A stretch of DNA of 64,000 bases from positions 298,573 through 362,572 of the IMG/VR virus record IMGVR_UViG_3300032132_000001. One strand, written 5' to 3'. Position numbers and translations under genes: made by a program. How positions within the stretch are numbered: position 1 is the stretch's first letter; every line of letters starts with the position of its first letter. The notes beneath the pieces were generated by a model. That model did not search any database and was not told the DNA's origin. It saw only the letters and a program-made list of their open reading frames with translations. Shown piece by piece: positions 21,101-59,587 of the stretch. The stretch is from a virus.

Positions 21101-23156
21101 TAAGATGCACGATGCTAGGAAAATGGACGAGCGCAGACGTGCTGAAGAAGGGCGGCTAACTAAGCTCTATCAAAACGCCAAGATGGCTCAAGAAAGAGTA
21201 GACGCGGAAGACCTCCAGATAATGATGACCGGCGGTGAAGAAGGATGGCTAGATGTTGGTCTGCTTGCACAAGAACTTGGTCTTAAAGGATCGCAAGCCA
21301 AGCGCATCAGCCAATTGGTAAATGGAGCTAGGAAAAGGACCGCTGCCGGAATCAAGAAATTGGGTAAGCCGGCGGCGATTCTAGCTAGTGGGATGGAAGA
21401 AGCGCAAAAAATCGCTGTTGGCCAAAGATATGCGCTAAACCAGAAGATCAGAGAACTACTAGAGGACTGGATCGAAGCTAAGAAGATCCCTTCTGAACTT
21501 CCATCTCGACACCGTACTGATAAGACGGACAGTACTCTTGGAAGATTCGACCAACGCGCTAAAGAATTCAACTCACCGGACATGCGCGGTGTTGGAGCAG
21601 GAAAAGTAAGAGCAGCCGATAAAGCAAGCAGCAGCGCATTGGTACTTGCAAGAGAGCTATACAGTTCTATTGGAAGCCAGCCAACTACCATAGATGAGAT
21701 TGAAGGGATCCTACAGTCTGGCCTTCAGGACAGCCGTAAGAATTTGGCCCTCTCCCGGAGGCTGTTACAAAGTTCAGAAGAAGAGCTGAAAGAAGCAATT
21801 ACTCAAAATAAAGAGCGGGAGAGATTTACCAAGTTCACGATGGACACCTTAACTAGACTGGCAGCTCACGAAGAGTTGAACCAGAAAGAAGGTGTAGAAG
21901 TGCCTCTGTTCGACGAATCTGGTCGTGTAAACATGGATATCACCGACTGGGTTCGTAATTGGGATTGGAAAGATGTCCAGAGACGAATTTCTGTAAGTGG
22001 CACCTTCCAAGAGTCGATGTCAGAAAAAGAGTTGGAAGAGTATCGTCAAAAGAGAGCAGAAGCTGCCGCTCGCGAGACCGAAGAACAACAAGCGAAATGG
22101 AATAAAGCGAAAGCCTGGCAACCATCGGACGAGCCAATCCGAGGAGAGCGTGGTACTGCTGGGATGGGCCATAGCAAGAGGGATGACCAACTTGCAAGAG
22201 AGGTGTCGGTCCCTCTTGGTAGCGTAGGACATGCAGAACTTATTGGCAACAAGTGGGAAGCTCTAACTGGTGTACGAGTCGTCGAGATTGACGAATATGG
22301 AGATAAGGAAGAGTCAGAAGAGGTAACAGCTGAACTCACCGGAATGATGGGTGGCAGAAGGAAAATCAGGATCAGAGCAAGCGGACAAGCCGACCCAGAT
22401 GCCGACTATAGGGTAGTGGGGCTCGCCGGCAAGAGGACTATTTCCCTGGACAAAGAAGTTGCGATTAAGATCACGCCTCCGCTTCCAGCGGAGACCATCG
22501 GTAAGGGTGACCTAGTTGTAATTGAAGGGGTAGACGACGCACCGTACATCAACGGCCTGAAAGGCCACATCCGGACTGTCGATTCCAAGCGTAAGCTGGT
22601 GGTAGTGGACCTATTCAAGAATGCTGTAGTCGAAGATAAATCGGTAATACTACAGTTCAAGGAAGTCTATCCTTACTATATCCAGGAAGGCTCCCGAAGG
22701 TTCAGCACGGCACCGACAGTGAGTATAACAAACCTCATTCAAGAAATCTTCGGTAGAAAGAGGATTCTAGAAAAAGCAGAGTGGAACCTGATTCCACTCT
22801 CTCTGCGAGACGGTCTTAGCATCTGCCTCACCGAAGCGATCACTTCTGACAACTGGGAAGCAGCTGAGAGAGCTACTAACCGCTTCATCCAAGATGTAGT
22901 TGTAAGCGAATCGGTGAGCGACAAGATCACCAACAAACTGAAGGTAGCATGGGGTAAGAAGTACTCACCGAAGATCTGGCGGATGGAGATCGACAAGTCT
23001 CGTAAGAGCCGAGGGTTGGCAACTCACAGGGAAAAGCTAGCCGCAAACGGTGGCTCTTCGACTACTCGATCTATCGCAGACCAGTGGATGAAAGGTCGCT
23101 CGGGAATGTCCGAAAACCAGATGGACAAAATTCTCGACACGATGCGCGATGACTAA
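15168..23156 (+). CDS. giant highly charged protein (2662 aa), probably an alpha-helical/coiled-coil structural or ejected virion protein
   Basis: Single uninterrupted ATG-initiated ORF of 7989 nt; E/K/R/D/A/Q-rich with long heptad-like stretches; I found no Walker, polymerase or protease motifs; several antisense ORFs inside are composition artefacts. Confidence 0.7.
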   Translation: MKRRLIKNKKLGFVVREAAPEDPDPEFIEPEDLPDAPRQTHRAGEKYIDPDKKDPGTPMGKARRDIPAGRGLPAVKKGDPILYPGPGPERREMAAQMKAQQERRPQDIAKEFDSQSVIDDANMIHGQTKLRTNHLAHLNKLLDWEGAEDDTRAAEAKGAVMRAITRHSEALANPKNEKQESLSDEIVSKLKIAAASADDPDLEGMDQIEADELSAKATKALELISGDLISVDDSEMDDFEDILPGLERGENETDEEWIARLNERYRPPEVDEDTWQEFDDLFMGKVDPETGALDTLTRQDITSIEKANEMSTIRASGDGDPEREAAAGMKTSLKPYKTFMNNVMAIKQVDDYDKRRELFNKYATGFVAYMNRYSVTNIEDIKTVRDHERAWNSVARKILTMGGDPRHINLLEEENRLDAFSRDLINIVSFYSQESDDKNLSAIWDEEGILQRVEYYEEKAAPLRQAHKAAEKQRRSWDTQAERTKEELRGVGKEDQKARKAAKAKKERAEKFQETWTEKAEEAKSNLDIVQKHIDFYSGAAQRFTELKDRQRNQQESFASSLVGISSRPEEYQQLMTEVQALKNSEERIKRQGGRAWSVLQAAEKNFQGVPPLSDSMLNTLGHRTGSFAARKDLEDQLLAISETGQLWNPEDPDSEEQRTKLVDQIQSLEKYSELLALHAELLDGVSKLIPQELGLDVEDLQREPVKFLQALASFKEAADQSAAAGDPQAEERSAQADRLEQASTQLANVRTQVAEKADIMGHIDVEWMGSGLDKDDDELKGHGGGIERLVGILRHILENDGQVPPEVRTDMANQHGRLKERLEGEVESLKRIAAIRVRMENSKSDLEVFNRSLQELHQEIKKLGIVRKYKAHDELLRLLEQSEPKYNEDSFHQAVEHWKSLAGASKDRKRLRNVMALQKELGSHEPGSDSWKNIYSQIQETIDQSGLGDEIIPSEEDEEDSEFMDVPEGMTADELDDYEEENAPTSINKALGKAKGDFDPASFSKAMKEWDRLKLSHDVTSGKGEVGEFLNTYMAQFNKPMSYQIIPLGAGYVAIIDIRIKKLKDLYHYLEQIRTGKDDPADKESEDLPSGIKEQTAAAKAKEEFRKKAIKSGEIDPNDPEENRIDSADLFNALGSHKYKVVGSAARRADTWQKYGTFQKLVEAQEKVRKKVGDLLDQLYGIGQWHKALKDPELHLPPGLFHATGPIRPEDLTDRGASQGVRVETAPEDKLVGLNTMQQLHRKSEGKALKAEARRAEAEEEIAILRNATPNRLKQSGVHLGWDSNIPYEKLAFMYQDTDSPFYYKTVRNQLAKLSLQGSGGSVDERNLHRRLRKLEGRAKHARKMSKIARSKEKAWRKQLLFLGALADERPDLSPEYLKRRRVEIERKITEYNSERRAFNVKVRDVREEIKQYNSASWQDLNTRDRSKTKSKSGGLLAPDEVHLAYGFVEYVTNTIKKLEGRITAANNSLIGANQKSTIDAKKKAMLKNAINYLLGGRDSSGEEIPLHTVTEYGPDQNKTVMFNPVVEMYGLRPYAGKGEYMPHIPHRYMSEEEIDNRTMYSALDACIDQLATIVSDVVLYLMGHGKLMVRGHGFATERGWAFLLAGVVQPSAGKAGPGKATALQRIGRDHLYSVQLETEARALWREGDVDNIEILSKLLNAHRLSRPKGFEDANLQSFHLAEHLDNFVADEEGEEAEVDQEGIRQLAGDVSYSTIKGVISSYDRVLKNANEAKEAAAARIEEALEESGETLEGDELEDAIEEEWKKDGYGSAIRSLNFYSRLNDGFSEDEAKEMADRADGPNNPSVIQRRLEQAGTMEEEHLRRVTFAKEAIRRAVAGAGSVSPRLLRKIYTSGTGVLKSVLDDFKDEQSAGASIGERREKISHAIAMNDTRASRMDGNVEMITPNMEAAQEAGDEALIKHYASYIEAWEDHAVELRNEIAELQVQDRELAKKGEDLPGKELNIDGIKHTLNWHRAKMHDARKMDERRRAEEGRLTKLYQNAKMAQERVDAEDLQIMMTGGEEGWLDVGLLAQELGLKGSQAKRISQLVNGARKRTAAGIKKLGKPAAILASGMEEAQKIAVGQRYALNQKIRELLEDWIEAKKIPSELPSRHRTDKTDSTLGRFDQRAKEFNSPDMRGVGAGKVRAADKASSSALVLARELYSSIGSQPTTIDEIEGILQSGLQDSRKNLALSRRLLQSSEEELKEAITQNKERERFTKFTMDTLTRLAAHEELNQKEGVEVPLFDESGRVNMDITDWVRNWDWKDVQRRISVSGTFQESMSEKELEEYRQKRAEAAARETEEQQAKWNKAKAWQPSDEPIRGERGTAGMGHSKRDDQLAREVSVPLGSVGHAELIGNKWEALTGVRVVEIDEYGDKEESEEVTAELTGMMGGRRKIRIRASGQADPDADYRVVGLAGKRTISLDKEVAIKITPPLPAETIGKGDLVVIEGVDDAPYINGLKGHIRTVDSKRKLVVVDLFKNAVVEDKSVILQFKEVYPYYIQEGSRRFSTAPTVSITNLIQEIFGRKRILEKAEWNLIPLSLRDGLSICLTEAITSDNWEAAERATNRFIQDVVVSESVSDKITNKLKVAWGKKYSPKIWRMEIDKSRKSRGLATHREKLAANGGSSTTRSIADQWMKGRSGMSENQMDKILDTMRDD

Positions 23157-25954: not shown

Positions 25955-26623
25955 ATGAAGCTCAAATCTTCAGTCCAACGCCGGGCTACCATAACTGAAT
26001 CACGGAAGCCCTATAGCGCCTCTTCTCTCGGTTTTGCGTACGACGCTCTAGAACCGTACATTGACGCCGAAACCATGAAGATCCACTACTCCAAGCATTA
26101 TATTGGATATTTGGAGAATCTCAACAAGGCGATGAAAGGTGTACCTACCAAGAATCGCAAGACAGTAAAAGCTCTACTTGAGAACTTTAGTAGCCTACCG
26201 AAGACTCTCAGTGACACCCGGAAAGAGACCATCAAGTTCAACGCGGGCGGAGTGGACAACCACAACGTCTTCTGGGCCAACATCGCCCCCGGAGGTGCCG
26301 TACGACCTCACGGAGAGCTTCTTTCAGCTATCACCGCCAGTTACGGCACTCTGAAAAAGTTCAAACAGCGTTTCTCAGAGCAGGCAGGAGACCATAGAGG
26401 CAGTGGTTGGTGCTGGCTGGTGAAGAAGAGTGGCGGGTTAGGAATCGTATTGACCACCGACCAGCACAGTCCCAGATTGAGTGGATGGGACCCGATTTTG
26501 GGTCTAGACGTCTGGGAACACGCCTACTATCTAAAGTACAAGAACGATCGAAAGAAGTATATCGATAATTTCTGGAAGATTGTTAACTGGAGCGACGTCG
26601 CTTCGCGATTCGCTGTAGCCTAG
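25955..26623 (+). CDS. sodB: Fe/Mn superoxide dismutase with an approximately 20-aa N-terminal extension
   Basis: AYDALEPYID...KIHYSKHY (compare SodB EYHYGKHH), NHNVFWANIAP, and the DVWEHAYYLKY Fe/Mn-SOD signature; metal ligands His/His/Asp/His appear conserved. Confidence 0.8.
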   Translation: MKLKSSVQRRATITESRKPYSASSLGFAYDALEPYIDAETMKIHYSKHYIGYLENLNKAMKGVPTKNRKTVKALLENFSSLPKTLSDTRKETIKFNAGGVDNHNVFWANIAPGGAVRPHGELLSAITASYGTLKKFKQRFSEQAGDHRGSGWCWLVKKSGGLGIVLTTDQHSPRLSGWDPILGLDVWEHAYYLKYKNDRKKYIDNFWKIVNWSDVASRFAVA

Positions 26624-27596
26624 CTTCCGACAGCATTTCTAGTTTCCGGCGCTTCGATTCTGGCTGGAAAGTAGCCCCAGTTCCGTAAGGCCCTGCTGTT
26701 CTAGCTTCACCCGCATCGGGCTGGAAGGTAGCTCCAGTACCAGGTTCTCCTGTGCCTGCACGCGCTGTCTGAGACCCCTCTTCTCCAGCAGGGCTTTTCA
26801 AGTTGATCACAAGTGAGACCATTCCGGTCTTTGGGTTCTTCCGTACTCCAACTGCGTTTGGCGGCATCCCCAGTTTGCGGGCTACCTTATCTCTTGCTGT
26901 CTGGGCGAACCCAGTGGGAGACGAAACACGCTGAAGGTGGAGGGCTCTCTTTTTCAGCTCTGGAGAAGCGAATTCTCCACCCTGAGCTGGCGCACCAGAC
27001 TTAGCCCTTGCTTGGCTTTTCTTCGCTAGAGTCCGCTTTGCCATAGCGGCTGTACCAGGTTCTGGTCTCAGTGCCTGAGATTGGAATCCCTTTTTGGCCA
27101 GGCGTGCTCTCGCTGCCGATTTCGCGTCTTTAGGAGCAGCTGGTGGTGCTGCTGGTAACACTGGCAGCGCATCTGCTTGAGACTTGTATCCTTTTTGAGC
27201 TAGTCGGGCTCTTGCCGCCTTTCCTTGTGCGGGGCTCATCCCTCTCTTACCCAGCTTATAAGGCATCTCAGACAGGATTCCCAGACCTACCAAACCTTGA
27301 GAGAGTAAACCAGGATGGATATCTTTATCGTTGACGATTGCTTCCATGATGTCATAGAAGCCGAGATCGTCTATATGGCTCTCAGCTAGTGTTTTCTTTG
27401 GGCATTCGTTGGCGAGATCGTAAAACTTCTTAGCCGTCTCAGCCCACCTTTCGAGGGTGGCACCCTCTTTGATCATCCTGTCGAGGCGGAAGACAAGCTC
27501 TTTTGCCTCATTTTTCATCATGTCCATCGGATCCCGATAAACTACAGCAGGATCATCGGAAATCAACGATGCGATGTGGTCTATGTCGTAGTCCAT
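26583..27596 (-). CDS. I(S)DDPAV-family N-domain protein with a basic Ala/Lys/Pro-rich tandem-repeat tail (337 aa)
   Basis: N-terminus MDYDIDHIASLISDDPAVVYRDP...; tail has repeats ARARLAQKGYKSQADAL / ARARLAKKGFQSQAL and GTGATFQPDAGEARTAGPYGTGATFQPESK. Convergent 41-nt overlap with sod. Confidence 0.5.
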   Translation of the reverse strand: MDYDIDHIASLISDDPAVVYRDPMDMMKNEAKELVFRLDRMIKEGATLERWAETAKKFYDLANECPKKTLAESHIDDLGFYDIMEAIVNDKDIHPGLLSQGLVGLGILSEMPYKLGKRGMSPAQGKAARARLAQKGYKSQADALPVLPAAPPAAPKDAKSAARARLAKKGFQSQALRPEPGTAAMAKRTLAKKSQARAKSGAPAQGGEFASPELKKRALHLQRVSSPTGFAQTARDKVARKLGMPPNAVGVRKNPKTGMVSLVINLKSPAGEEGSQTARAGTGEPGTGATFQPDAGEARTAGPYGTGATFQPESKRRKLEMLSEARLQRIAKRRRSS

Positions 27597-27660
27597 CTTA
27601 TCTCCTCAAGTACTTTAGATTTGCTCTGCTATTTCGTATATAATCTCCAAAGGAGGCTCT

Positions 27661-28638
27661 ATGAACATAGACTTGCACAGACATGCCGGCGGATCCATAA
27701 CGCCGGAAACAGTATGGGAAATCATTCAAAGCGACAAGAAGATGGGAAACCTGGCCGAGTCGCTAGATGATCTATACCGAATGATGACATTCAAGGATGA
27801 TGAGAAACGAAATTTCCACCACTTCTTGAAGAAATTCAACGTCCAGAATCACATAATGTGGAATGAAGCTGCGATCGACCTGACGATGAAACAAATCATC
27901 GGAGACATGCGCAAGGAAGAGTTGGAGTACTGCGAATTGCGCTTCTCTATCGACAAATACCTAAGTTACATCCCCTGGGACGAACACGAAGCTTGCCTTT
28001 TCGTTCTCCAGCGAATAGACTATTGGGCCAAGGAATTCAAGGTCAAGGTAGGGCCGGTACTCTCTATCAAGTACGAAGCATCGTACGTGACACAAAAGCG
28101 GCTCAGCAAACTGGTAAACCACTGGCGCATCGCAGAACAGCTCGTCGGCCTGGACCTGGTAGGCAACGAAGCGATGGCCAATCGGAAGAGGCTCCGGGAC
28201 ATCTATCGATATTGGAGAGCTTGCGGGAAGGGTCTTCTCGCCCATGCGGGCGAGAGTCAAGGGGTAGAAAACGTCAGAATGGCGATCCAAGACCTCAAAG
28301 TCAACAGGATCGCCCACGGCATCAGGATCGTAGATGACCCAGAGCTGATGGCACTAGCCAAGGATAACGGTATAGCGTTTGATGTGGCTATAACTTCTAA
28401 TGCCATGACTGGCGTAGTAAAAGGTGGGATTGGTCATCATCCCATTCGTAAGATGTACGAAGAAGGGCTAATTATCACCATCGGTACAGATGATCCAGTT
28501 ACCTTCTGTACCAGCTTGCCCCAAGAATACGACCTAGCCACAATGCACATTGGCCGGTCTCACCACCCCTCTACGGTGAAGCACAAGCTTATGAAAGCTT
28601 CTGTGGAGCATGCTCTAGTACCGTTATCTCAAACATAG
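27661..28638 (+). CDS. adenosine/AMP-deaminase-family metal-dependent hydrolase
   Basis: IDLHRHAGGSITPETVWEI (compare ADA VELHVHLDGAIKPETIL), LAHAGESQG (HAGE) and TIGTDDPVTF (SLNTDDP) motifs. Confidence 0.65.
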   Translation: MNIDLHRHAGGSITPETVWEIIQSDKKMGNLAESLDDLYRMMTFKDDEKRNFHHFLKKFNVQNHIMWNEAAIDLTMKQIIGDMRKEELEYCELRFSIDKYLSYIPWDEHEACLFVLQRIDYWAKEFKVKVGPVLSIKYEASYVTQKRLSKLVNHWRIAEQLVGLDLVGNEAMANRKRLRDIYRYWRACGKGLLAHAGESQGVENVRMAIQDLKVNRIAHGIRIVDDPELMALAKDNGIAFDVAITSNAMTGVVKGGIGHHPIRKMYEEGLIITIGTDDPVTFCTSLPQEYDLATMHIGRSHHPSTVKHKLMKASVEHALVPLSQT

Positions 28639-28643
28639 AGTAC

Positions 28644-29723
28644 ATGCGCCTAGAGCTATTATGTGAAAAAGAAGATCCTTGGTATGACCCAAAAAGTGGT
28701 AGGTCATTTCCAAGGAAGAGGAAGGGTGCCGACTACGTAGGCACTCATGGTCTCCGGACTATGACCCCTCCGAAGCCCGCTGGACCGCCAGGCACACCCA
28801 CTACTGCAATGCCTACCTTACACCTGACTTACCCAGACGCTAAGGAGGACAAACAGCCGTGGATCCTATATCTAGGCACTCATAGAAGTAAGCGTCACCC
28901 AAGTAAAAACAAGAATAATCCCGAAAAAGATGTAACATATGTGATGGGTATCAAGCTCAACAAGATGCTTAGAGACCCATCCTACTCGCGCTTGCTTGGC
29001 ATCATTCGAAATAGAATCCCAGATATAACTAAGCAATCTACATCTCAAGGCCGTGCTAGAAGGATTAGGGAGATCTTCAGAGCGTTTGATAGGTCCGGTT
29101 CAGACACGATGTTCAAAGGTGTTTACCGCACTTACGTGCAAGAACCTGGCTTGATTACCAAAAAGCACGGTGGCATTACAGCTTCAACTCCTGGTGAACC
29201 ATTCACCTATATGTCTATCGATCAGGTTGCCCAACAGTGGGGGTCTGATGAAGACCGAGATGAAACCATCGGGAAGATGCAGAAGCTCAAGGATCTTGAG
29301 CGTAAGATCTACGATCTCCATGGTAAGATGAATAGAGCTGACAAGCACGGGATGCCTACTGACAAATTCCAGAAGCTCCTCGACCTCCACACTGCCGATT
29401 ATCAAGAGTTAGGTGACGAGCTAGAAGCTGGTAGAGAAGAATTTGCTACCACAATGCCACAGCAACAGGCTGATATACCAGGCATCACTCCAGATCGTGG
29501 CTTGCCAGATCCGAAAGCGGTGGTGCGCCCGAAAGATCAGCGGAAAGCGATCAAACCCGGAGAAGGCATTCCCACTCTGCAACAAGATATTGAGAGAGCG
29601 AAAGAGTCTGCAGCCGCTGTTGGCACGCTTTCCTCGCCCCAAAAGGCGGCCCAAGCGCACTACGACCCGTCCTTGAACGACCCTGACTACGAAGATCTGG
29701 CTGACCAAGCCGACAAGATGTAG
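28644..29723 (+). CDS. hypothetical protein (359 aa)
   Basis: ORF; N-terminus with Pro-rich and basic low-complexity; no motif recognised. Confidence 0.45.
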   Translation: MRLELLCEKEDPWYDPKSGRSFPRKRKGADYVGTHGLRTMTPPKPAGPPGTPTTAMPTLHLTYPDAKEDKQPWILYLGTHRSKRHPSKNKNNPEKDVTYVMGIKLNKMLRDPSYSRLLGIIRNRIPDITKQSTSQGRARRIREIFRAFDRSGSDTMFKGVYRTYVQEPGLITKKHGGITASTPGEPFTYMSIDQVAQQWGSDEDRDETIGKMQKLKDLERKIYDLHGKMNRADKHGMPTDKFQKLLDLHTADYQELGDELEAGREEFATTMPQQQADIPGITPDRGLPDPKAVVRPKDQRKAIKPGEGIPTLQQDIERAKESAAAVGTLSSPQKAAQAHYDPSLNDPDYEDLADQADKM

Positions 29724-30379
29724 TGAATAATTTAGAATGGAAAGAGTTCTTCGAAGAATATAAAGAACTCAAGAGCAACGACCAAGCGGCGATACTAGGT
29801 TGTTCTTCCTCTCTTATCCGGAAGAGGAAGCGCCAACTTGGGTTGAACATGTCGCGCTCAGAAATGATGCAGGACTATAAATCACCCCAAAAAGCTGATT
29901 CTTATCCCAAAATAGGACCAGAAATTTGGGATAACCGTGATTGGTTCTATGAGCACTATGTTGTAAAGGGGCTGGGGAAGCGGACTATCGCCAGGATCAT
30001 CGATCGATCCAAGGAAATAGTGTTCCGACGCTTAGAAAGATATGGGATCCCCGATGCCCATCACGAACACAAGGTCACCAACCCATGCTGCGACGAAGAA
30101 TGGCTGGTTCGCCACTATTGCAGACGTAGAGATTACCTGAAGTGGTGTGAGGAGAACGGGCGCGACCCTCTTCCGGATGGTGGGATGGGCCTCCCGATCT
30201 ATCCTTGTGCTGAAATCGCAGGCGTAAGTAGGTATACCATCTACAACTGGCTCAGCAAGTTTGGCATCTACATTAGAGCCAACACTGAAGCAGTTTCGCT
30301 AGCCTTCTATTACAAATATTGTGATGCTGAAAGCGACGTGGAAAGCAGAACGCCTCAAGATCCTAAAATATCTGGATGA
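29723..30379 (+). CDS. hypothetical protein with three helix-turn-helix-like segments (218 aa)
   Basis: QAAILGCSSSLIRKRKRQLGL, GKRTIARIIDRSKEIVFRRLERYGI and AEIAGVSRYTIYNWLSKFGI each look like HTH units; candidate DNA-binding regulator or small terminase-like protein. Confidence 0.4.
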   Translation: MNNLEWKEFFEEYKELKSNDQAAILGCSSSLIRKRKRQLGLNMSRSEMMQDYKSPQKADSYPKIGPEIWDNRDWFYEHYVVKGLGKRTIARIIDRSKEIVFRRLERYGIPDAHHEHKVTNPCCDEEWLVRHYCRRRDYLKWCEENGRDPLPDGGMGLPIYPCAEIAGVSRYTIYNWLSKFGIYIRANTEAVSLAFYYKYCDAESDVESRTPQDPKISG

Positions 30380-31499
30380 TTGCAACGTCGTAGTAGACCA
30401 CACCCATAAAATAAAGGGTGCTGGTGAATACTTCTTTGTTAATTTCCAATCTGGCATAAAAGAATGTTGGATAGCGGGTGAGGGTGTCCATTTCGACACT
30501 GGCAAACCCTGGAAATACCCATATAGATACAATATGCCGATAGGTGATTGTCTAAACAGCATAGAAATTCCCATTTATATGGAGCACGAAACAAGAGACC
30601 TGATCAGAATCGATAGTCCTATGTTCACCATTCAGTACTCAGATATGGTGAAGGCTGGGTTCTGTCCGACTAGGATCAAGATCCATGAGCTTATATGTGA
30701 TCTGACTCTTGAAGGGTGGCGTGAACTTGAGTACCCTTTGGATATCCTGGACAAGGAATTCCAAGAACTAAAAGAAAGCAATGTAGAGAAATACCAATTC
30801 ACCCCTAATCGCTTGGTGAAGATAGCTTCCGGGGCCGTTCGGGGAAAGCGGCTATATTCGCATTTCTTTCCCTGGGGGAAATTGAGCGACGGCAATCGGC
30901 CTCCTCTCACGGTCTCGTGGGCCCACAGCTTGTTCATGTATCGTGCGATGCGATATTTGGTGTCGCGCAAGAAGAACATCAACAGGACTAACATCGTAGA
31001 CCGTCTGCAAGGGTTGCCCAGCATAAGATCTGGCCCCCGTATTCCAAATTGCAACTTCTGGAGAGCCGTGCTCCGGAGGTTCGCACCTTCAGCGAAGACA
31101 GTTTTCGATTACGAGCCGGCCTGGGGAGAGAAAGCTCTTGCTGCTGCGTGTGAAGGCTTAGACTATGGCTGGAACTGGGATAGCTATAAGCACAGTGGCT
31201 GCATGGAAGCTTTGTGCGACTTTGTCAACATCGACTTTTTAGACGTAGAGCCTGAAACTGCTGATGTAAGCATATTGAGCAGCTACACTCCGCTGGACGA
31301 GAAATCTGCTGTTGATAGGCTCAGCTCGCCATGGAAACAGGCAATTATAATCATCCAGAGAGAAGCGGCTGAAGCGATTGAGAAAAAGATGCCGCCCTCC
31401 AGAAAGCTATTCTTCGCCCCGCATCAAGCTTGGGTTTCTTACAAACCCGATTACATATTCCATTATGATACAAATATACAAAAACGGAGGTTGCCATGA
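30321..31499 (+). CDS. hypothetical protein (392 aa)
   Basis: ORF overlapping the previous gene by 59 nt in another frame; no motif recognised. Confidence 0.45.
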   Translation: MMLKATWKAERLKILKYLDDCNVVVDHTHKIKGAGEYFFVNFQSGIKECWIAGEGVHFDTGKPWKYPYRYNMPIGDCLNSIEIPIYMEHETRDLIRIDSPMFTIQYSDMVKAGFCPTRIKIHELICDLTLEGWRELEYPLDILDKEFQELKESNVEKYQFTPNRLVKIASGAVRGKRLYSHFFPWGKLSDGNRPPLTVSWAHSLFMYRAMRYLVSRKKNINRTNIVDRLQGLPSIRSGPRIPNCNFWRAVLRRFAPSAKTVFDYEPAWGEKALAAACEGLDYGWNWDSYKHSGCMEALCDFVNIDFLDVEPETADVSILSSYTPLDEKSAVDRLSSPWKQAIIIIQREAAEAIEKKMPPSRKLFFAPHQAWVSYKPDYIFHYDTNIQKRRLP

Positions 31500-31768
31500 T
31501 ACTAACAGCAATTGACATCGAGAGAAAGCTAGCTGTCGTCAACGGTTTTGTTGAGATTCCAGATGGCCAGCGCACTCTCCGCACTAAGCTAACCCCAGAG
31601 GACGTTCTCGCTCTGATTCCCGGCACTCGGCGTGTTCGCATTGGCCTTGCACCGGCACGGATTCACGACCAGGAATGGATCGTGTTTCCAACATACGACC
31701 GCTTCGCAGACGCTCAGCCACCAGCAGACTGGTTCCAGATCCTGAGGGATGCAGCTGAAGCAGCATAA
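31496..31768 (+). CDS. hypothetical small protein (90 aa)
   Basis: ATGA overlap with the upstream gene; strong SD (GGAGG) 5 nt before the ATG. Confidence 0.4.
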   Translation: MILTAIDIERKLAVVNGFVEIPDGQRTLRTKLTPEDVLALIPGTRRVRIGLAPARIHDQEWIVFPTYDRFADAQPPADWFQILRDAAEAA

Positions 31769-31781
31769 GTACATAGTATGA

Positions 31782-32789
31782 ATGGAAAAGAAAGCCTTAA
31801 TCACCGGAATAACTGGCCAAGATGGTAGTTATCTAGCAGAATTTCTACTAGATCGTGACTATGAAGTCCATGGAATTATAAGACGATCTAGTCATTTCAA
31901 TACTCAAAGAATAGACCACATCTTCGATAGGTTGCACCTATATCATGGAGACCTTTCAGACGGTCTTTCTCTTAGCGAAGTCATCAAGGGTGTGCAACCC
32001 GATGAGATCTACCATCTTGGTGCACAGTCTCATGTGAAGGTAAGCTTTGAGATTCCAGAATATACAGCCAATATCGATGCGCTTGGTACGCTGCGACTGT
32101 TAGAGGCTGTCCGTCATCATGCGCCTAAGGCGAAAGTGTACAATGCCGCTTCAAGCGAGATGTTTGGAAGCTCACCTCCACCGCAAAACGAAGAAACTAT
32201 TCTAAATCCTCAGAGCCCTTACGCCTGCGCTAAGGTATTCTCATACAATCTAATGCGGAATTATCGTACAGCATATAACATGTTCCTATCTAATGGTATT
32301 CTCTTCAACCACGAAAGCCCAAGGCGCGGCGAGACTTTCGTTACACGGAAGATTACCAGAGCAGCCTCTAGAATCTCATATCGACTACAAGATAAGCTAT
32401 TTCTAGGAAATATGGACTCGAAACGAGATTGGGGCCACGCCAAAGATTATGTGTATGGAATGTGGTTGATGCTGCAGCACGATGAGCCTGATGATTTCGT
32501 GCTTTCAATGAATGAGAGTTACTCAGTACGGCAGTTCGCAGAAGAAGCGTTCTCCTACATAGACAAAGATTACCGCGATTACATTGAGATAGACCCAAAA
32601 TACTTCAGGCCGTCTGAAGTAGACGCTCTCCATGGCGACTCATCTAAAGCGAGAAAGGTCCTTGGGTGGTATCCTTCGTTCACATTCCAAAGCTTAGTGC
32701 ACGACATGATGCAGAACGATTTGAAAATAGCTTGGGAAGAAAGAGAGATGAAGAAGGTTGCCCTTAGGCGAGAGCGAGAGTTAGAATGA
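31782..32789 (+). CDS. gmd: GDP-mannose 4,6-dehydratase
   Basis: [54 protein letters not shown] and YACAKV (YxxxK) match GMD throughout its length. Confidence 0.85.
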
Positions 32790-33010
32790 CAGTAAAAGAC
32801 GATATTCTCAGTATGCGTCACCCAGGGGTAGGGTATAACCCTACTAGGTTCGTAGAACTGTATGGCGCCGAGATGGTTCCAATGTCCCGGGTTGAGCCTG
32901 ACCCGAATACTTTTAGGAGCGAGTATTATTACAATACTCGGCAGAATGCGCTATACCGCAAGTTACCCACAGATGACAGTAAAGTGGTCTGGAAGCGCAT
33001 TGGTGGATAA
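32786..33010 (+). CDS. hypothetical small protein (74 aa)
   Basis: ORF with an ATGA overlap to gmd. Confidence 0.3.
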
Positions 33011-33057
33011 CATCAAATATATACAAAGCACTTTCGTGCAATTATAAGGGACTATCA

Positions 33058-35844
33058 ATGGCACAGTTCAAGATTCCGGAAAAGTCCAGCCTTACGGACA
33101 AGCAGACTGTTCAAGTCTCTGGTCCGGACGGCGTAGTAACGACCTATCAGTTTGACAGTGAAACCTGCACGCTCTATAGCCAGGCTTCACCTGTAATCAT
33201 TCCGCCTTTCCATGGCCAAACTCACATCGCAGAAGATGCGGTCCCGATTGTCACGACAGACACTCAGGGCCATATGTCCCCATCTGACAAGGCGAAACTA
33301 GATGCTATTACTCAAACTAGGGTTGGCGTTCTCGGCTTTGCAGGTTCTGGCCTTCCTGACGACGGGGGATTTCTTCAAGGTGATATCATCCTTGCGACGG
33401 GCTCTGACCTCCTCAACATCGAAAGAGTAGGGAACGTCGTAAGATTCACTCTGAATACTACACAGCAATTCTGCGGTTGCGAAGAATGCGCCCAGATCTT
33501 CTGGATCCAAGATGAGTCCGATCCAGCTCAGATTAGACCACCATCATGCGCCGGTAAGCTTCCAGGAACGAACGTATACAACGAAATGAAGGTATATCTC
33601 CTACCGGAGAATACCATCCTGGACCCATCTAACCCGGTACCGACACTAAACCAAAAGAGCTTCTTCCCAGCGATGACCTTCACCAGGTTCCCTGGGTTGA
33701 CTCCAGACCTTGCTCAATTCCACCTCGTTCTCCAGCGAAACACCAACACTACCACTAGGGTAGGCTGGAGCATGACACCGGGCACTTCCGGCAAGGTAGA
33801 AACAATCTGGTGGACCGGACTAGATGACGACGGTGAGCAAATCACCTTCGAACTAGAGCCGAACAGCGAATCCAACTTGCTTGGCATGCTGCTCTACAAG
33901 GGTCACAGCCTGACTCGTCAGATGGCGGTGGTTACCAGCTATACCTCCACCATCCTATCAACCAACCAATATCTGTGCCGCTTCTGGGACGTGAATAATG
34001 CCGGCCCGGTAGGTGATGAGTTCACAGCAACCAACGTATGGCAGTACAACAACCCAACCAACTCTGCAACATCGCTAGTCAACCCTCGCACACTCGTTTT
34101 GGACTCCTCTGTCAACCTGCTGCCTGTCGGCACGCTTGTTCAGATTTGGGAGTACCAGATTGGTGAAATCAACGGGGAGCGCCTAGTACGTCGCTTCTTC
34201 AACCTAGAACCACAACTAAGCCCAGAGACGATCTGGACCCTTGGCGGTGCGATCAAGTTTGGAGATCTGTTGACAGCTCGTCGTGAAGTAAGCCCAATGG
34301 ACCCAAGTGAGAAGGTTGCTTTCGAAGAGGAAGTGAGCGATATCCGTCTCATCGAGCGTTCAGAATGGGGTATCACCGGTTTTGAGGATCCGCTCCTATT
34401 GAGCGACGATGGTGAAGGTACGGACACCACGGTTGGTGTTCTCCAAACGGACGCCCTGACCGCGTTCAGTCTGGTAAAGGATACCGATTTCGCGGTTCCC
34501 AACCTCACTCTCACCGGAAACGGTCCTACAGGTGGTCCAATTGCTGGAGCGCTAGTAGGACGGACTTTGGTTTTCTCATCTGGTGCACATATCGGTGAAC
34601 AATTCGAGATCCTATTCAACTCGGAAGTTGATTATGTGATCTTCGGAGAAGCGCCTGACCTGGTTATTGGCGATACTTTCTTCGTGATCTCGGAAGTCCC
34701 AACGAGTGAACCGTCTGGTATCCCGATCAACAACCAGTTCGTTGCAAACATCGACCCGGATCTTCCGGGGTTGAGGGTGGAGACGTCAGACCCGTCTTGC
34801 GACAGTGAGCGTCCGGTCTACATCTGGCACAGAGGTAACCACAAGAACCTCTACGTGAAAGCGCTGGTAGGAATGCCATCGTCAAGCACGTTCCCTCCGA
34901 TGGACATACTACTAAGAGCGCCTGGTGACAGCTACGATGACACTTACCTAAATGTGATCCGCCGTGGTATTCTTACTACTGGTCGGTTTGCAGGAAGGAA
35001 CTACATCATCGTGAAGGGCGTCCACTGGAAGGATCTGCCGCCTGAGGGCACCCTGCGGATTCTGACAGGTCTTGCAAGGAATGAAATCTGGACTTACTTC
35101 GATAAAGTTGCATTCTACCTCGCTGATGACGATGCTGTCCAGTTGATTGGTGATGCACTGGTCCCCTTCTTATTCGACGAAGACTTCGAAGCGGGAACGG
35201 CTGCTCCTGACATCACCCAGGGTCTTGTAACTACCCCGGGCAGTACTACTGTGGCAGAGCTTCTTCACGAGGACTACAACGCGGCAGCGCTCCGCTTGGA
35301 GTTCTCAGTGAACGACAACAGCGAAGGTGAGAGCGTCCAGCTCCAGGTGCGGGGTGGTCTATTGGATATGGCCGAGCCTTATGAGTTCGACAGATCCGTA
35401 GATCCGGTTGATGAGTACGTTAGAGGTTTCCAACCAGGGAACTTCGCAGTAAGTGCGCTGATGACCCAGCAAGGGTTCATCGACATTGGCACTGAAACCC
35501 CGGAAGCAGAACCGGTCGGATTCAAGGTGTACAGAGGTGGATTCTCGGCGGGAACTGCCGAAGAACCATCCGAGTTCTGGAACACCCTAGAGATCATGTA
35601 TCGGGACGATCAGCTTTGGGTATGGTGGAATAACCTCTTGGTACCACCAGATCCGACGCTCTCAGCACAACTGCCAACACCAGTTGCTGTCACAACGCCG
35701 TATTTCCAGATCCAGTCGCCAATCTCGCTGGGCAAGGTGGTCCTAAGGCTGTGGCCTGGTACCACGTTCCGTGAGATGGAAATCCGCGATCAAGCTCTGG
35801 CCTTCAACGAGTTCGTCCACGGCCAGCTGGAATTGTCCACCTAA
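33058..35844 (+). CDS. large structural protein, probable tail-fibre/receptor-binding protein (928 aa)
   Basis: N-terminal region TDTQGHMSPSDKAKLDAITQ matches the GxMSxxDKxKLDxI motif that recurs in N-terminal parts of phage tail-fibre proteins; the rest is Thr/Gly/Asn-rich, beta-type composition; AAGGGA SD. Confidence 0.5.
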   Translation: MAQFKIPEKSSLTDKQTVQVSGPDGVVTTYQFDSETCTLYSQASPVIIPPFHGQTHIAEDAVPIVTTDTQGHMSPSDKAKLDAITQTRVGVLGFAGSGLPDDGGFLQGDIILATGSDLLNIERVGNVVRFTLNTTQQFCGCEECAQIFWIQDESDPAQIRPPSCAGKLPGTNVYNEMKVYLLPENTILDPSNPVPTLNQKSFFPAMTFTRFPGLTPDLAQFHLVLQRNTNTTTRVGWSMTPGTSGKVETIWWTGLDDDGEQITFELEPNSESNLLGMLLYKGHSLTRQMAVVTSYTSTILSTNQYLCRFWDVNNAGPVGDEFTATNVWQYNNPTNSATSLVNPRTLVLDSSVNLLPVGTLVQIWEYQIGEINGERLVRRFFNLEPQLSPETIWTLGGAIKFGDLLTARREVSPMDPSEKVAFEEEVSDIRLIERSEWGITGFEDPLLLSDDGEGTDTTVGVLQTDALTAFSLVKDTDFAVPNLTLTGNGPTGGPIAGALVGRTLVFSSGAHIGEQFEILFNSEVDYVIFGEAPDLVIGDTFFVISEVPTSEPSGIPINNQFVANIDPDLPGLRVETSDPSCDSERPVYIWHRGNHKNLYVKALVGMPSSSTFPPMDILLRAPGDSYDDTYLNVIRRGILTTGRFAGRNYIIVKGVHWKDLPPEGTLRILTGLARNEIWTYFDKVAFYLADDDAVQLIGDALVPFLFDEDFEAGTAAPDITQGLVTTPGSTTVAELLHEDYNAAALRLEFSVNDNSEGESVQLQVRGGLLDMAEPYEFDRSVDPVDEYVRGFQPGNFAVSALMTQQGFIDIGTETPEAEPVGFKVYRGGFSAGTAEEPSEFWNTLEIMYRDDQLWVWWNNLLVPPDPTLSAQLPTPVAVTTPYFQIQSPISLGKVVLRLWPGTTFREMEIRDQALAFNEFVHGQLELST

Positions 35845-35944: not shown

Positions 35945-36625
35945 ATGCCTATCATCATCGAAATCCGTGCCGGCGAAGGCGGCAAGGACTCCAAGCTTTT
36001 CATCCACGATCTAGCGTCAGCATATATCAAGTATGCTAACAACCTAGGTCTCAAATCTGACCTGATCTATACCTCGGAGAGCCAAGTATCTCTGAAGGTA
36101 AACGGAGACGCTGAACAGCACTTCCAGCACGAATCTGGTAAGCACTGTGTCCAGCGCGTGCCCCCGACTGAGAATAAGGGGCGCTCTCACACCTCCACGA
36201 TCACGGTAGCAGTCCTCCCGATCTTAGAGCACGTCCATGTAGACGTACCAGATAGGGACATCGAGATAAAGACGCAAGGTGGTTCTGGGCCAGGCGGTCA
36301 ACATCAGAACAAGACTGATTCTGCTGTTCGCGCCACCCACAAGCCGACCAACATCCGAGTCTTTATCAACGGGAAGGATCAACACTCCAATCGCCGGAAG
36401 GCGATCCAAATACTCAAATCCAGGATTGCTGCTCTAGAGCAGCAAAAGGTGGACGAAGAGCATAATGGAGAGCGGTTAGGTCAGATCGGTTTCGGAGGTC
36501 GCAGTAACAAGATTAGGACTTACAACTTCATAAAGAGTAGAGTTGTAGACCACCGACTGAAGACTAAGACTACACAGATCAAGAAAGTAATGAAGGGAAG
36601 GTTTGACCTGATACTGCAAACATAA
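35945..36625 (+). CDS. prfH: PrfH-like class-I peptide chain release factor of RF1 type, lacking domain 1 (226 aa)
   Basis: Aligns to RF1 domains 2-4: EIRAGEGG, CVQRVPPTENKGRSHTSTITVAVLP (RF1 RVQRVPATESQGRIHTSAxTVAV; the PxT tripeptide is PPT), GGSGPGGQHQNKTDSAVRATH (GGQ motif) and RSNKIRTYNFIKSRVVDHR (RTYNFPQGRVTDHR). About 110 N-terminal residues (domain 1) are absent, which is the architecture of RF-H. Confidence 0.75.
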   Translation: MPIIIEIRAGEGGKDSKLFIHDLASAYIKYANNLGLKSDLIYTSESQVSLKVNGDAEQHFQHESGKHCVQRVPPTENKGRSHTSTITVAVLPILEHVHVDVPDRDIEIKTQGGSGPGGQHQNKTDSAVRATHKPTNIRVFINGKDQHSNRRKAIQILKSRIAALEQQKVDEEHNGERLGQIGFGGRSNKIRTYNFIKSRVVDHRLKTKTTQIKKVMKGRFDLILQT

Positions 36626-37635: not shown

Positions 37636-37677
37636 TGTCGTAGTATTTTGACACTAAGTCCTAAAGAGGAGGCCCGT

Positions 37678-38502
37678 ATGAAAGAGGTCGATCTAGTACT
37701 TAGTGGTAGCTCAACGAAATATCCTTGTCATGTAGGGTTTATCAAAGGGATTCAAGAGCTAGAATTTGACGTCCGTCGTTTAGCACTAAATTCTGGTGGG
37801 TCGATGATCGGCGGTTTTTATGCTGCTGGGATGTCGATGGACGAAATGATGGATATGACGTACCGCACTGATATATGCGGTTTCCTAAATAAGGGATTCT
37901 TAGCCATTAGGCGGCTTAGTAATCATGGCTATCTAAGTAACGGCTGGAGATTCTACCGATTCCTCAAAAAGAAGACGGGGAAGAAAAAGCTCCGCGACAT
38001 CGATATTCCAATCTTCATTATGGCATCTAATTTCTCCAAATATGAACTTCACGTTTTCACCCAAGAGACAGATCCGGACGTCCTCCTGGCAGATGCAATC
38101 TATATGAGTTGTACAATGCCCGGAGCGTTCATGCCTATCGTTCGTGATGGGGACTCCTACCGAGATGGTGGGATCCACAAAGACTTCCCATGGGATATCT
38201 GGACCGATTGCCCTAGGACTAGGATTGGCCACCTGATCGCCTTCTCTCATAAAATGATTGTAGACCAGCGCAGTTGGTCAGGGTTTATGGAGTTAGCCGC
38301 TTACGGGGCTAATGTTTCCTTTAAGAACGTAAAGGAATCTCTGGATAAGGGACCTAAAGAGCCTGATGGCTATATTGTAGAGAGCTACGGCATGTGTCTG
38401 CCGGCATTCCGTCTGGCCATAAATAAAGACCAGAGGATGGCAATGATCCAGGAAGGGTATCACAATACCATGTCCAAACTTTCTGACATTGACGTAAAGT
38501 AG
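37678..38502 (+). CDS. patatin-like phospholipase
   Basis: Start at the ATG with a strong SD (AGAGGAGG). MKEVDLVLSGSSTKYPCHVGFIKG (oxyanion/Gly-rich), NSGGSMIGG (GxSxG nucleophile) and YRDGGI (catalytic DGG). Confidence 0.6.
   Translation: MKEVDLVLSGSSTKYPCHVGFIKGIQELEFDVRRLALNSGGSMIGGFYAAGMSMDEMMDMTYRTDICGFLNKGFLAIRRLSNHGYLSNGWRFYRFLKKKTGKKKLRDIDIPIFIMASNFSKYELHVFTQETDPDVLLADAIYMSCTMPGAFMPIVRDGDSYRDGGIHKDFPWDIWTDCPRTRIGHLIAFSHKMIVDQRSWSGFMELAAYGANVSFKNVKESLDKGPKEPDGYIVESYGMCLPAFRLAINKDQRMAMIQEGYHNTMSKLSDIDVK

Positions 38503-57735: not shown

Positions 57736-57736
<1 letters not shown>
56933..57736 (+). CDS. patatin-like phospholipase (second copy), probable TTG start
   Basis: LDLVFSGSGARFPAFVGAL, GSSGGALVGG (GxSxG) and LYDGGI (DGG). 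An in-frame TTG at 56933 gives (M)KQLDLVFSGSG, mirroring MKEVDLVLSGSS of the first copy, and cuts the 71-nt overlap of the track's ATG form (56876) to 14 nt. Confidence 0.55.

Positions 57737-59587
<1,851 letters not shown>

Follow-up and report, generated by a model that had tools for sequence, protein, structure and literature searches.

A huge phage of roughly 400 kb carries a gene for what appears to be a catalytically complete, zinc-dependent member of the adenosine/AMP deaminase superfamily, and this gene belongs to a clade that lives, as far as present data show, almost only in very large phages. Judged by its residues, the base-binding half of the substrate pocket is like that of adenosine deaminase (ADA), while the half that receives the sugar and the 5′ position seems to have been rebuilt. 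The altered pocket suggests that adenine nucleotides are the substrate, and not plain adenosine. Our tentative proposal, which we consider possible and somewhat short of probable, is that the protein is an active adenine-ring deaminase of a 5′-phosphorylated substrate, (d)AMP most likely, and that it would re-route purine nucleotides.

The gene was read directly from the window (the whole stretch of 64,000 nucleotides that was analysed) as an exact ATG-to-stop frame of 325 aa, as the sequence-only reading had it. Its coordinates, together with those of the motifs and neighbours discussed below, are collected in Table 1. Its codon usage and that of the remaining window show a correlation of 0.83. 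A divergent intergenic region of 64 bp lies 5′ of the gene and holds both a TATAAT and a GGAGG (27639..27656). A promoter at the TATAAT is only suggested, since a consensus promoter scan called no full −35/−10 pair upstream of the deaminase.

Table 1. Coordinates in the window of the deaminase gene, its motifs, its start region and its neighbours.
Feature	Position	Strand	Basis or remark
Fe/Mn superoxide dismutase (sod)	25955..26623	+	Pfam Sod_Fe_N, Sod_Fe_C
337-aa repeat-rich protein, contains string DDPAV	26583..27596	-	ORF
TATAAT	27639-27644	+	read directly from sequence
Shine-Dalgarno GGAGG	27652-27656	+	read directly from sequence
Deaminase gene, adenosine/AMP-deaminase superfamily, huge-phage clade	27661..28638	+	ORF, PF00962, AF2, Foldseek, tree
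LHRHAGGS: predicted zinc ligands H6/H8; G10 at the ADA Asp19 position, Gly-Gly-Ser turn	27673..27696	+	alignment to human ADA, hADAL, AtMAPDA, KomA
Lid helix FHHFLKKF: F55, L56, F59 = ADA F61, L62, F65	27814..27837	+	invariant or near-invariant in clade
RFSIDKY, clade signature after strand 2: S96 = AtMAPDA T98; K99 = AtMAPDA R101 / hADAL R110 / ADA L106	27940..27960	+	
K137-Y-E139, site of ADA M155 / AtMAPDA D160 (ribose 2′-OH contact)	28069..28077	+	K/R in 45/53 clade sequences
HAGE: predicted zinc ligand H195, catalytic Glu E198	28243..28254	+	invariant in 53/53 clade sequences
RIAHG: predicted catalytic His H219 = ADA H238	28306..28320	+	invariant in clade
TDDP: predicted zinc ligand D277, catalytic Asp D278	28486..28497	+	invariant in clade
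359-aa protein, family F2	28644..29723	+	starts 5 bp past deaminase stop codon
Conserved block: 218-aa HTH, 392-aa, 90-aa, GDP-mannose 4,6-dehydratase, 74-aa and 928-aa proteins	29723..35844	+	same order in L005

The product is a single domain of 325 aa. It matches PF00962 (A_deaminase) over residues 3-302 of 325 with 160.7 bits, for a cut-off of 27, and E=6.3e-47 (Pfam search); this is far beyond chance and makes it a member of the adenosine/AMP deaminase superfamily. The HxH, H, D zinc set is present as H6, H8, H195 and D277, and the equivalents of ADA Glu217, His238 and Asp296 as the catalytic residues E198, H219 and D278. Among 53 clade members, N-terminal truncations apart, each of these residues is invariant or nearly so. 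A pseudo-enzyme was considered and rejected because every catalytic residue is invariant. The earlier claim of an ADA-family hydrolase carried by the element was thus borne out, with a complete catalytic set and a huge phage as the mobile element; each ADA motif it had quoted (LHRHAGGS, HAGE, TDDP) was found, and none of the zinc-ligand His or Asp residues was lost on alignment. AF2 predicts a (beta/alpha)8 TIM barrel, a model and not a solved structure, with a pLDDT of 95.7. Compared by Foldseek with solved ADAs and ADAL, the predicted model gave TM values of 0.84-0.90 (0.89 against the Vibrio ADA 6n91), and TMq values of 0.89-0.90 for 6n91 and 6n9m.

Three observations show that the enzyme is no housekeeping Add of purine salvage: its scores lie below all equivalog cut-offs, its clade is virus-restricted and its codon usage is phage-like. 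A clear best match to a housekeeping ADA with host-like codons, which would have spoken against the sequence-only reading, was therefore not what we observed. TIGR01430 gave 156 bits for an equivalog cut-off of 216.55, the PRK09358 models 44.5-126 bits for cut-offs of 412-549, and the AMP deaminase model TIGR01429 (AMPD) 16.4 bits for a cut-off of 726.3; the large multidomain build of AMPD was not found either. Profile assignment to a subfamily, which had been suggested as a check, came out in part only: the superfamily match in Pfam stood and aden_deam was the top NCBIfam model, but every NCBIfam equivalog cut-off was missed. ADAs from cells, plasmids and catalogued phages were at most 27-29% identical to it. 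The HxHxEG of ADA-fold adenine deaminases (Aah1 / PA0148 type), whose Glu at position 19 we take to be their defining mark, is replaced by G10 here, and Glu was found only outside the clade.

The contig that bears the gene measures 397 kb, and the element encodes a head maturation protease, a portal, sigma-70, RF-1, a peptide deformylase and ClpP; a T4-type tail tube and a prohead protease were found in related loci. The deaminase keeps its synteny in L005, a relative with 70% identity, and has long been resident in the phage lineage. A recent transfer from a host was also considered, and was rejected on the grounds of phage-like codon usage, synteny in relatives and absence of a close cellular homologue.

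The neighbours are as they had been described, with sod nearby and the 337-aa and 359-aa proteins on either side. The sod and 337-aa genes (25955..27596) are absent from L005, where a 138-aa gene abuts the deaminase; they form a lineage-specific insertion directly 5′ of the deaminase gene, and the nearness to sod therefore carries no functional weight. The 337-aa protein had been called a member of a "DDPAV-family". The string is indeed there, but the family found no backing: searches of Pfam, PHROGs and PADLOC gave no match, and the window holds no paralogue. The 359-aa F2 protein combines a conserved domain at its N terminus with a tail rich in acidic residues and proline, and several related phages encode a member of its family immediately next to the deaminase. 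Nothing matched it in Pfam, PHROGs, PADLOC or a PDB profile search. Two large homologue searches, swamped by low-complexity words, retrieved 3 proteins only, and the AF2 model built from 3 sequences (pLDDT 44) was unusable. Families of the conserved block that follows recur near the deaminase in six further loci (L006, L010, L013, L023, L028 and L032). The 928-aa family is highly conserved, with 47-76% identity across loci; PDB profile searches with the 392-aa and 928-aa neighbours gave chance-level matches only.

Across 21 IMG/VR loci plus other contexts, no recurrent functional neighbour of the deaminase was found. Genes of nucleotide metabolism (guaB, guaA, kinases) are not consistently found next to it, most neighbours being ORFans and structural-looking genes, and across the clade loci there is neither a consistently adjacent known anti-defence gene nor a conserved anti-defence neighbourhood. 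Class I methyltransferases lie 1-2 kb from the deaminase in four loci. All four are orthologues in one sub-lineage, and therefore count as one event. The window itself encodes a methyltransferase, and Mom-family proteins were found near the deaminase gene in 3 loci only.

In a neighbour-joining (NJ) tree the deaminase falls in a monophyletic clade of 119 tips, with 74 tips outside. All clade loci in IMG/VR (22/22) are on contigs of 68-408 kb, and every clade genomic context examined was either a viral contig of 68-408 kb or one that looks viral but had been binned into a MAG. A pattern-based scan of 185,579 species genomes, which distant members may escape, returned 2 clade-type matches, both on MAG contigs, one of which has the phage gene block too. 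No close relative was found in catalogued phages, plasmids or BFVD. A plasmid search for KomA-like or clade-like genes gave a best match of 29% identity, and the two neighbourhoods that were inspected were unrelated. A literature search found no paper on a phage or viral adenosine deaminase, and the huge-phage paper names no deaminase.

Two changes define the clade, namely the replacement of Asp19 by Gly, Ser or Ala (HxHxGGS) and a near-invariant K99. In ADA, Asp19, Leu106 and Met155 are ligand contacts (PMC6239307). Position 19, the ribose-binding Asp of ADA, is G46/S4/A2 among 53 clade sequences and D10/E6 in 16 canonical ones; by protein, the alignment has D in ADA and Add, N in hADAL, AtMAPDA and KomA, and G10 here. 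The K99 position is K/R in 53/53 clade sequences, with K near-invariant. The NJ tree set gave the same picture, an acid being absent at position 19 in 112/119 clade tips versus 4/74 outside, and K/R occupying the L106 position in 119/119 clade tips versus 1/74 outside. The gap in clade HMM scores falls where the motif changes from HxHx[G/S/A]G to HRHLEG/HxHLDG. That K99 is invariant argues for selection rather than drift. The third altered contact, K137, is not diagnostic, because a basic residue near the M155 position is also found in E. coli Add; on alignment, an Arg lies roughly at this position both there and in KomA. As to the base-binding half, G168 is the ADA-like equivalent of Gly184, and the F55/L56 pair of the lid, with Phe in 53/53 clade sequences, is unlike the V57/F58 pair of the N6-mAMP deaminase.

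In AtMAPDA the substrate phosphate is bound by backbone NH groups (L16, N17, T98), by side chains (N17, T98, H65) and by K100 (PMC6451127). These positions align with A9, G10, S96 and N63, and with D98 at that of Lys100, which K99 adjoins. The two sets of residues are alike in kind without being the same. The clade has Asp or Asn at this salt-bridge position (D98 here), so that K99 is shifted by one residue from it and the net charge changes only modestly.

The enzyme was compared with the four known systems nearest to it. With bacterial Add (Vibrio cholerae 6N91, Salmonella 6N9M, E. coli) and mammalian ADA1, it shares the (beta/alpha)8 fold (TM 0.86-0.90), the zinc site, the catalytic Glu/His/Asp, the F61/L62/F65 lid, the Gly184 equivalent and a size of about 330 aa. 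It differs from them by an identity of 20-27% only, by the changes from Asp19 to Gly, Leu106 to Lys and Met155 to Lys, by a shorter loop after strand 2, and by its location on huge-phage contigs instead of cellular purine-salvage loci. With MAPDA/ADAL (Arabidopsis 6IJN, human 8QCH; TM 0.82-0.87), it has in common a non-acidic position 19, a Ser/Thr closing strand 2 and a basic residue at most 3 residues further on in a short loop, which are 5′-phosphate-binding elements in MAPDA (PMC6451127). However, the N6-methyl-sensing pair Val57/Phe58 (Cys/Phe in human) is Phe/Leu here, as in ADA (PMC6451127), the exact Lys100 position is Asp/Asn, the sequence match is weaker than that to Add (E=1.8e-8 versus 6e-25), and MAPDA, unlike the phage enzyme, has a housekeeping role in eukaryotes. 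KomA, which deaminates dAMP in Kongming anti-phage defence and prefers nucleotides (bioRxiv 10.1101/2024.12.20.629578), is likewise an unfused PF00962 protein, about 330 aa long, with a non-acidic position 19 (Asn19). It has Ile-Tyr where the clade has Asp-Lys, and is encoded by the host in an operon with the HAM1-like KomB and the SIR2 KomC, whereas the phage gene lacks such neighbours: no PF01725 or PF13289 domain (Kongming partners) was found within 10 kb of it. Finally, the deaminase domain of Cad1/CAAD, the type III CRISPR ATP deaminase, which acts on a phosphorylated adenosine, is homologous to the phage protein (PADLOC CARF_ADA, 100 bits), the match spanning profile positions 261-557 of 605, that is the deaminase half only. 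The phage enzyme has no CARF domain and no evidence of a hexamer or of regulation, and its structural similarity to Cad1/CAAD is lower (TMq 0.72-0.83). When the fused/duplicated homologues P0105 and P0134 were used as queries, classical ADAs ranked first. No RADAR RdrB match was given by PADLOC, and no AAA ATPase (RdrA) is adjacent.

The reaction we propose is a zinc-dependent hydrolysis that would convert the 6-amino group of the adenine ring to a keto group, and so adenine to hypoxanthine. In ADA an Asp holds the ribose hydroxyls; here that position is a Gly in the Gly-Gly-Ser turn, and the invariant Ser-x-x-Lys-Tyr lies after strand 2, where N6-methyl-AMP deaminases place a phosphate-binding Thr and a Lys/Arg. 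From this rebuilt half of the pocket we infer that the substrate bears a 5′-phosphate; it would most likely be AMP or dAMP, yielding IMP or dIMP. Adenine nucleotides released during infection may in this way be directed to IMP and the guanine-nucleotide pool, a re-routing of purines that can be likened to the re-balancing of pyrimidines by phage dCMP deaminases. Such a role fits AMP better than dAMP, because we know of no direct route from dIMP to dGMP. We also note, against dAMP as a substrate, that deamination of dAMP by a phage would also supply the dITP by which Kongming-type defences are alarmed. Remodelling of purine pools was one half of the functional proposal in the sequence-only reading, and is the better supported of the two.

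Other substrates have to be weighed. The pocket changes may be neutral drift in a divergent viral lineage, the enzyme being an ordinary adenosine / 2′-deoxyadenosine deaminase for nucleoside salvage. Its best sequence and fold matches are indeed bacterial ADAs (6n91, E=6e-25, TM 0.89), aden_deam tops NCBIfam, and the F55/L56/F59 lid and G168 are ADA-like. We nevertheless hold this to be rather unlikely: Asp19, found in every nucleoside-specific ADA compared, is lost clade-wide and its replacement is itself conserved, K99 is invariant, and the score lies under all equivalog cut-offs. Deamination of a 5′-substituted adenosine by-product (S-adenosylhomocysteine, 5′-methylthioadenosine, 5′-deoxyadenosine, aminodeoxyfutalosine), which would relieve product inhibition of the numerous SAM-dependent enzymes of the phage, is quite improbable. 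Loss of the Asp that binds the 5′-OH would suit a substrate without a 5′-OH, K99 could bind a carboxylate, and methyltransferases are encoded 1-2 kb away in four loci and in the window; but the four neighbours amount to a single event. The label "aminodeoxyfutalosine deaminase" given by JGI to homologue P0006 is automatic, and the SAH, MTA and 5′-dA deaminases known so far form a different amidohydrolase group. Very improbable, in our opinion, is a constitutive ATP/dATP deaminase that would shut down the host like the effector domains of Cad1 or RdrB. The 100-bit PADLOC match to the deaminase half of CARF-ADA points that way, and the CAAD residues that touch phosphate and ribose (S352, N355 and Y356) are spaced like S96-x-x-K99-Y100, although by residue arithmetic only and not by alignment. 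However, the protein consists of one 325-aa domain with neither CARF nor any other regulatory domain attached, ADA structures match it far better than those of Cad1 do, RdrB gave no match, and unregulated conversion of ATP to ITP would harm the phage's own replication.

The other half of the sequence-only proposal was that the enzyme could inactivate adenine-based immune second messengers. Put more broadly, it would deaminate an adenine signalling nucleotide (3′,5′-cAMP, cyclic oligoadenylates, CBASS products or ADP-ribose-derived Thoeris signals) and so blunt host immunity or regulation. Several observations agree with it. The family already includes the nucleotide-acting immune enzymes KomA and Cad1/CAAD, and CadD of Leptospira, reportedly a cAMP deaminase, has been described for this COG. 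Also, K99 and K137, at positions that contact the 5′ and 2′/3′ sites in solved relatives, could clamp a cyclic or 3′,5′-linked phosphate, the clade is restricted to viruses, and huge phages have many counter-defence genes. Against it, there is no experimental or contextual link and no consistently adjacent anti-defence gene. PADLOC gave nothing beyond the shared deaminase domain, with no partners of the CARF, RdrB or KomBC type, the literature search found no paper on a phage deaminase of this kind, and oligonucleotides are a tight fit for the buried pocket of ADA. We therefore judge it unlikely. That the clade enzyme would turn the adenine of a host messenger into hypoxanthine, silencing the messenger without cleaving it, is a shade less likely again, and we know of no report of phage immune evasion by such a route. 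The altered sugar/5′ pocket would be compatible with a phosphorylated messenger, but simple (d)AMP would fit at least as well.

Bacterial immunity has lately been found to use adenine deamination as a weapon (RADAR, Cad1, Kongming), and the conservation in very large phages of a deaminase from that superfamily points to use of this chemistry by the viral side. The pocket of the phage enzyme appears to differ from those of all characterised members, and its clade, marked by HxHxGGS and SxxKY, provides a small enzyme of one domain that is easy to express and assay. If (d)AMP proves to be the substrate, the enzyme would be the purine counterpart of phage dCMP deaminase; a literature search found no report of a purine-side nucleotide-pool enzyme of this kind in phages. 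If it is a signalling nucleotide, the clade would represent a new class of anti-defence enzyme.

The sequence-only reading had proposed a gene of the adenosine deaminase family carried by a mobile element, recognised by its LHRH..GS, HAGE and TDDP motifs. The ORF was indeed found complete at that place and its product contains all three motifs, the first as LHRHAGGS. Membership in the family was borne out by Pfam A_deaminase, which matched residues 3-302 (E=6.3e-47; score 160.7 bits, threshold 27). The upstream signals are reported in the table; no full -35/-10 pair was called in this region by a consensus promoter scan. The GC content of the gene (0.491) is typical of window genes, and its codon usage correlates at 0.83 with that of the other window genes, a value included in the range of its neighbours.

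Coordinates of features in the window and at homologous loci (L-handles)
Feature	Position	Strand	Remarks
Deaminase ORF	27661..28638	+	ATG to stop, 325 aa
GGAGG	27652-27656	+	5 nt 5' of deaminase ATG
TATAAT	27639-27644	+	within 64-bp divergent intergenic region 5' of deaminase
Fe/Mn superoxide dismutase gene (sod) and 337-aa gene	25955..27596		convergent, 3' ends overlapping by 41 bp
2662-aa ORF	15168..23156	+	orthologue of 2242 aa in L005
F2 family, window member	28644..29723	+	359 aa
F2 family, other members	L002:9041-9985, L010:10975-11691, L013:6978-7877, L028:7025-7672
928-aa protein	33058..35844	+
Release-factor-1-like protein	35945..36625	+	226 aa; PCRF and RF-1 domains; far shorter than bacterial RF1
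Two patatin-like phospholipases and APS-kinase-like protein	37648..38502, 56876..57736, 58566..59144	+
PEP mutase (PF13714), RmlD/epimerase-type and HpcH/HpaI aldolase-type proteins	1..2534	-	ORFs 626..1738, 1569..2534, and a gene running past window start
Mom-family genes	L020:3802-5313, L028:3428-4672, L049:3098-4651		about 3 kb or less from deaminase
GDP-mannose dehydratase	L048:1-1205	-	735 aa; faint intein-splicing and LAGLIDADG hits between dehydratase halves

The predicted structure of the deaminase (pLDDT 95.7) superimposed on bacterial and mammalian adenosine deaminases (ADA) with TM scores of 0.86-0.90, on the N6-methyl-AMP deaminases ADAL and MAPDA with scores of 0.82-0.87, and less well on Cad1, the CARF-fused ATP deaminase. 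Residues were mapped with human ADA (100% identical to 7RTG), human ADAL (100% to 8QCH), Arabidopsis MAPDA fragments and the dAMP deaminase KomA as references. The alignment is valid, since the MAPDA numbering derived from it reproduces every residue number in the MAPDA structure paper (PMC6451127). The zinc ligands of ADA (H15, H17, H214 and D295) correspond to H6, H8, H195 and D277, the catalytic residues (E217, H238 and D296) to E198, H219 and D278, G184 to G168, and the lid residues (F61, L62 and F65) to F55, L56 and F59. All are invariant or near-invariant among 53 clade members. The enzyme should be active, and its base pocket, judged from the aligned residues, is ADA-like.

We concluded that the protein belongs to the adenosine/AMP deaminase superfamily, of which it displays every defining feature tested. 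Its identity does not exceed 27% with ADA genes of catalogued phages and 29% with plasmid-borne ones, and is 20-25% with solved ADAs; no PHROG family matches it, and no ADA-like fold was found in the BFVD viral structure set. A housekeeping Add/ADA1 was ruled out by the equivalog score (156 for TIGR01430, whose cut-off is 216.55, every other NCBIfam equivalog cut-off being missed as well), by the loss of Asp19 and by the non-cellular location. The lack of the N6-methyl pocket ruled out MAPDA/ADAL; likewise, Cad1, RdrB and the KomA system were discarded, as the deaminase has neither a CARF domain nor an RdrB match, and neither HAM1 nor SIR2 is among its neighbours. Membership of the AMP deaminases (AMPD) was also rejected.

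A profile search over 1.84 billion representatives revealed a step in the scores: about 60 representatives at or above about 256 bits have HxHx[G/S/A]G, and below about 236 bits the motif switches to HRHLEG or HxHLDG. Neighbour joining of 193 full-length sequences placed all high-scoring HxHx[G/S/A]G sequences in one clade of 119 tips. In human ADA numbering, Lys or Arg occupies position L106 in 119/119 of these tips against 1/74 outside; Gly, Ser or Ala is found at D19 in 112/119 (the rest being N-terminal gaps) against 4/74; and Lys or Arg at M155 in 100/119 against 1/74, E. coli Add also having a basic residue near position 155 in the residue alignment. All genomic contexts examined were of viral or virus-like character. 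The 22 IMG/VR loci of the clade all lie on contigs of 68-408 kb, and metagenome contigs of 93, 120, 137, 248 and 88 kb abound in ORFans, HNH genes and genes for fibres or baseplates. When 185,579 species genomes were scanned by pattern, only two clade-type hits emerged, both on MAG contigs. Two contigs assigned to archaeal MAGs, JAWCRL010000001.1 (169.6 kb, labelled Nitrososphaerales archaeon) and WJMJ01000101.1 (L010; 121 kb, labelled Lokiarchaeota/Promethearchaeota), consist mostly of ORFans and share the block deaminase-F2-HTH-392aa-90aa-74aa-928aa with the bacterial-type huge phage; mis-binning of phage contigs is the probable explanation. Three clade-type homologues, P0105 (625 aa), P0094 (404 aa) and P0112 (435 aa), have N-terminal extensions of 95-310 aa in which no domain was identified, and two further proteins, P0134 (738 aa) and P0137 (544 aa), seem to contain the deaminase domain duplicated in tandem.

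The residues that set the clade apart bear on the sugar side of the pocket. In ADA structures, Asp19 binds the ribose hydroxyls. Asp19, Leu106 and Met155 of ADA are sugar-side ligand contacts (PMC6239307). Position 19 is Asp in ADA and E. coli Add, whose substrates are nucleosides, Asn in human ADAL and Arabidopsis MAPDA, which act on N6-methyl-AMP, Asn again in KomA, which prefers dAMP, and Gly, within a Gly-Gly-Ser turn, in the huge-phage clade. MAPDA holds the 5' phosphate through backbone amides of Leu16, Asn17 and Thr98, side chains of Asn17, Thr98 and His65, and a salt bridge with Lys100 (PMC6451127). Leu16, Asn17, Thr98 and His65 align with A9, G10, S96 and N63. The clade has Asp or Asn at the exact Lys100 position, and the invariant K99 aligns with the adjoining MAPDA Arg101 and with ADAL Arg110. 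The spacing of S352, N355 and Y356 of Cad1/CAAD, which contact phosphate and ribose, equals that of S96-x-x-K99-Y100, by residue arithmetic only. Like MAPDA, the phage deaminase has a short loop after strand 2. The N6-methyl sensor pair Val57/Phe58 is replaced by Phe/Leu, as in ADA, which makes specificity for N6-methylated substrates unlikely. We infer that the base pocket accepts unmodified adenine and that the pocket on the sugar side is adapted to an anion at the 5' position, which would most simply be the phosphate of AMP or dAMP. The enzyme is ADA-like on the base side and plausibly MAPDA- or KomA-like on the phosphate side.

The carrier is a huge bacteriophage, and a plasmid or genomic island was rejected in its favour. 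The window encodes a ClpP-type head-maturation protease, a portal-like protein and an RNA polymerase sigma factor, together with peptide deformylase, a release-factor-1-like protein, NUDIX and HNH proteins, two patatins, an acetyltransferase and numerous large ORFans, one of 2662 aa. This set matches the huge-phage repertoire of release factors, peptide deformylase, own sigma-70 and nucleotide interconversion genes (PMC7162821). An identical deaminase is located on a 397,419-bp contig, and related loci encode a T4-type tail tube, a prohead protease and a P2-I baseplate protein. The three genes, lying in a row, at the window start look like a phage-carried phosphonate-biosynthesis cassette.

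In L005, a syntenic relative with a deaminase 70% identical to that of the window, the gene order is the same: giant protein, 685 aa, 138 aa, deaminase, 283 aa and, further on, GDP-mannose dehydratase, 75 aa and 926 aa. The sod and 337-aa genes are both missing there; they are therefore a recent insertion specific to the window's phage, and their proximity to the deaminase is no guide to function. The 337-aa protein, which the sequence-only reading called DDPAV-family, has repeated 'ARARLAxKGxxSQA' segments and the string DDPAV; it matched nothing in any library searched and has no paralogue within the window, so that the family label found no support. More distant loci, with deaminases 34-41% identical, repeatedly show a block composed of the deaminase, F2 (about 240-360 aa) and an HTH protein of 218 aa, then 392-aa, 90-aa, in some cases GDP-mannose dehydratase, 74-aa and 928-aa proteins. 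None of the deaminase's partners was identified, and we read the block as lineage synteny, not a pathway. In several phages F2 directly adjoins the deaminase. Its N-terminal domain of ~170 aa (DPRP..LG.W.HP.TGN.L..GINLNYLS...AYRTY) is conserved and precedes a long acidic/proline-rich tail; profile and homologue searches found no known relatives. The 928-aa protein, 47-76% identical across loci, had no Pfam, PHROG or PDB match despite this conservation, and the 2662-aa ORF matched neither Pfam nor PHROG; the two are probably main constituents of the virion, of an undescribed type.

In 21 IMG/VR loci, most ORFs up to 3.5 kb from the deaminase had no Pfam match. The recurrent neighbours were GDP-mannose dehydratase (4), NUDIX (3), thymidylate kinase (2), Mom (2, with one further locus) and methyltransferases, the last being orthologues within one sub-lineage. 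In phage Mu, Mom modifies adenine at N6; the window has no Mom-family gene. The hits within the L048 dehydratase suggest a gene interrupted by an intein.

No feature of these neighbourhoods fixes the role of the enzyme. Apart from the deaminase domain shared with CARF-ADA, nothing indicative of defence or anti-defence was found. Conversion of purine nucleotide pools would be the most economical role, by analogy with phage dCMP deaminase and in keeping with the nucleotide interconversion genes of huge phages (PMC7162821): AMP would be converted to IMP by the deaminase, and then to guanine nucleotides. The first suggestion, that the enzyme deaminates a messenger of immunity or regulation which contains adenine, is compatible with the phosphate-friendly pocket, but nothing favours a messenger over (d)AMP, and we hold it to be improbable. 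Further rivals of pool conversion are the salvage of plain nucleosides, the removal of SAH, MTA or 5'-dA, and ATP deamination without regulation.

A literature search found no description of such an enzyme of the adenosine deaminase family from phages or other viruses. The chemistry is familiar. The clade is well defined, virus-restricted and easy to test, and a phage-side enzyme would be informative for adenine deamination in the conflict between phage and host.
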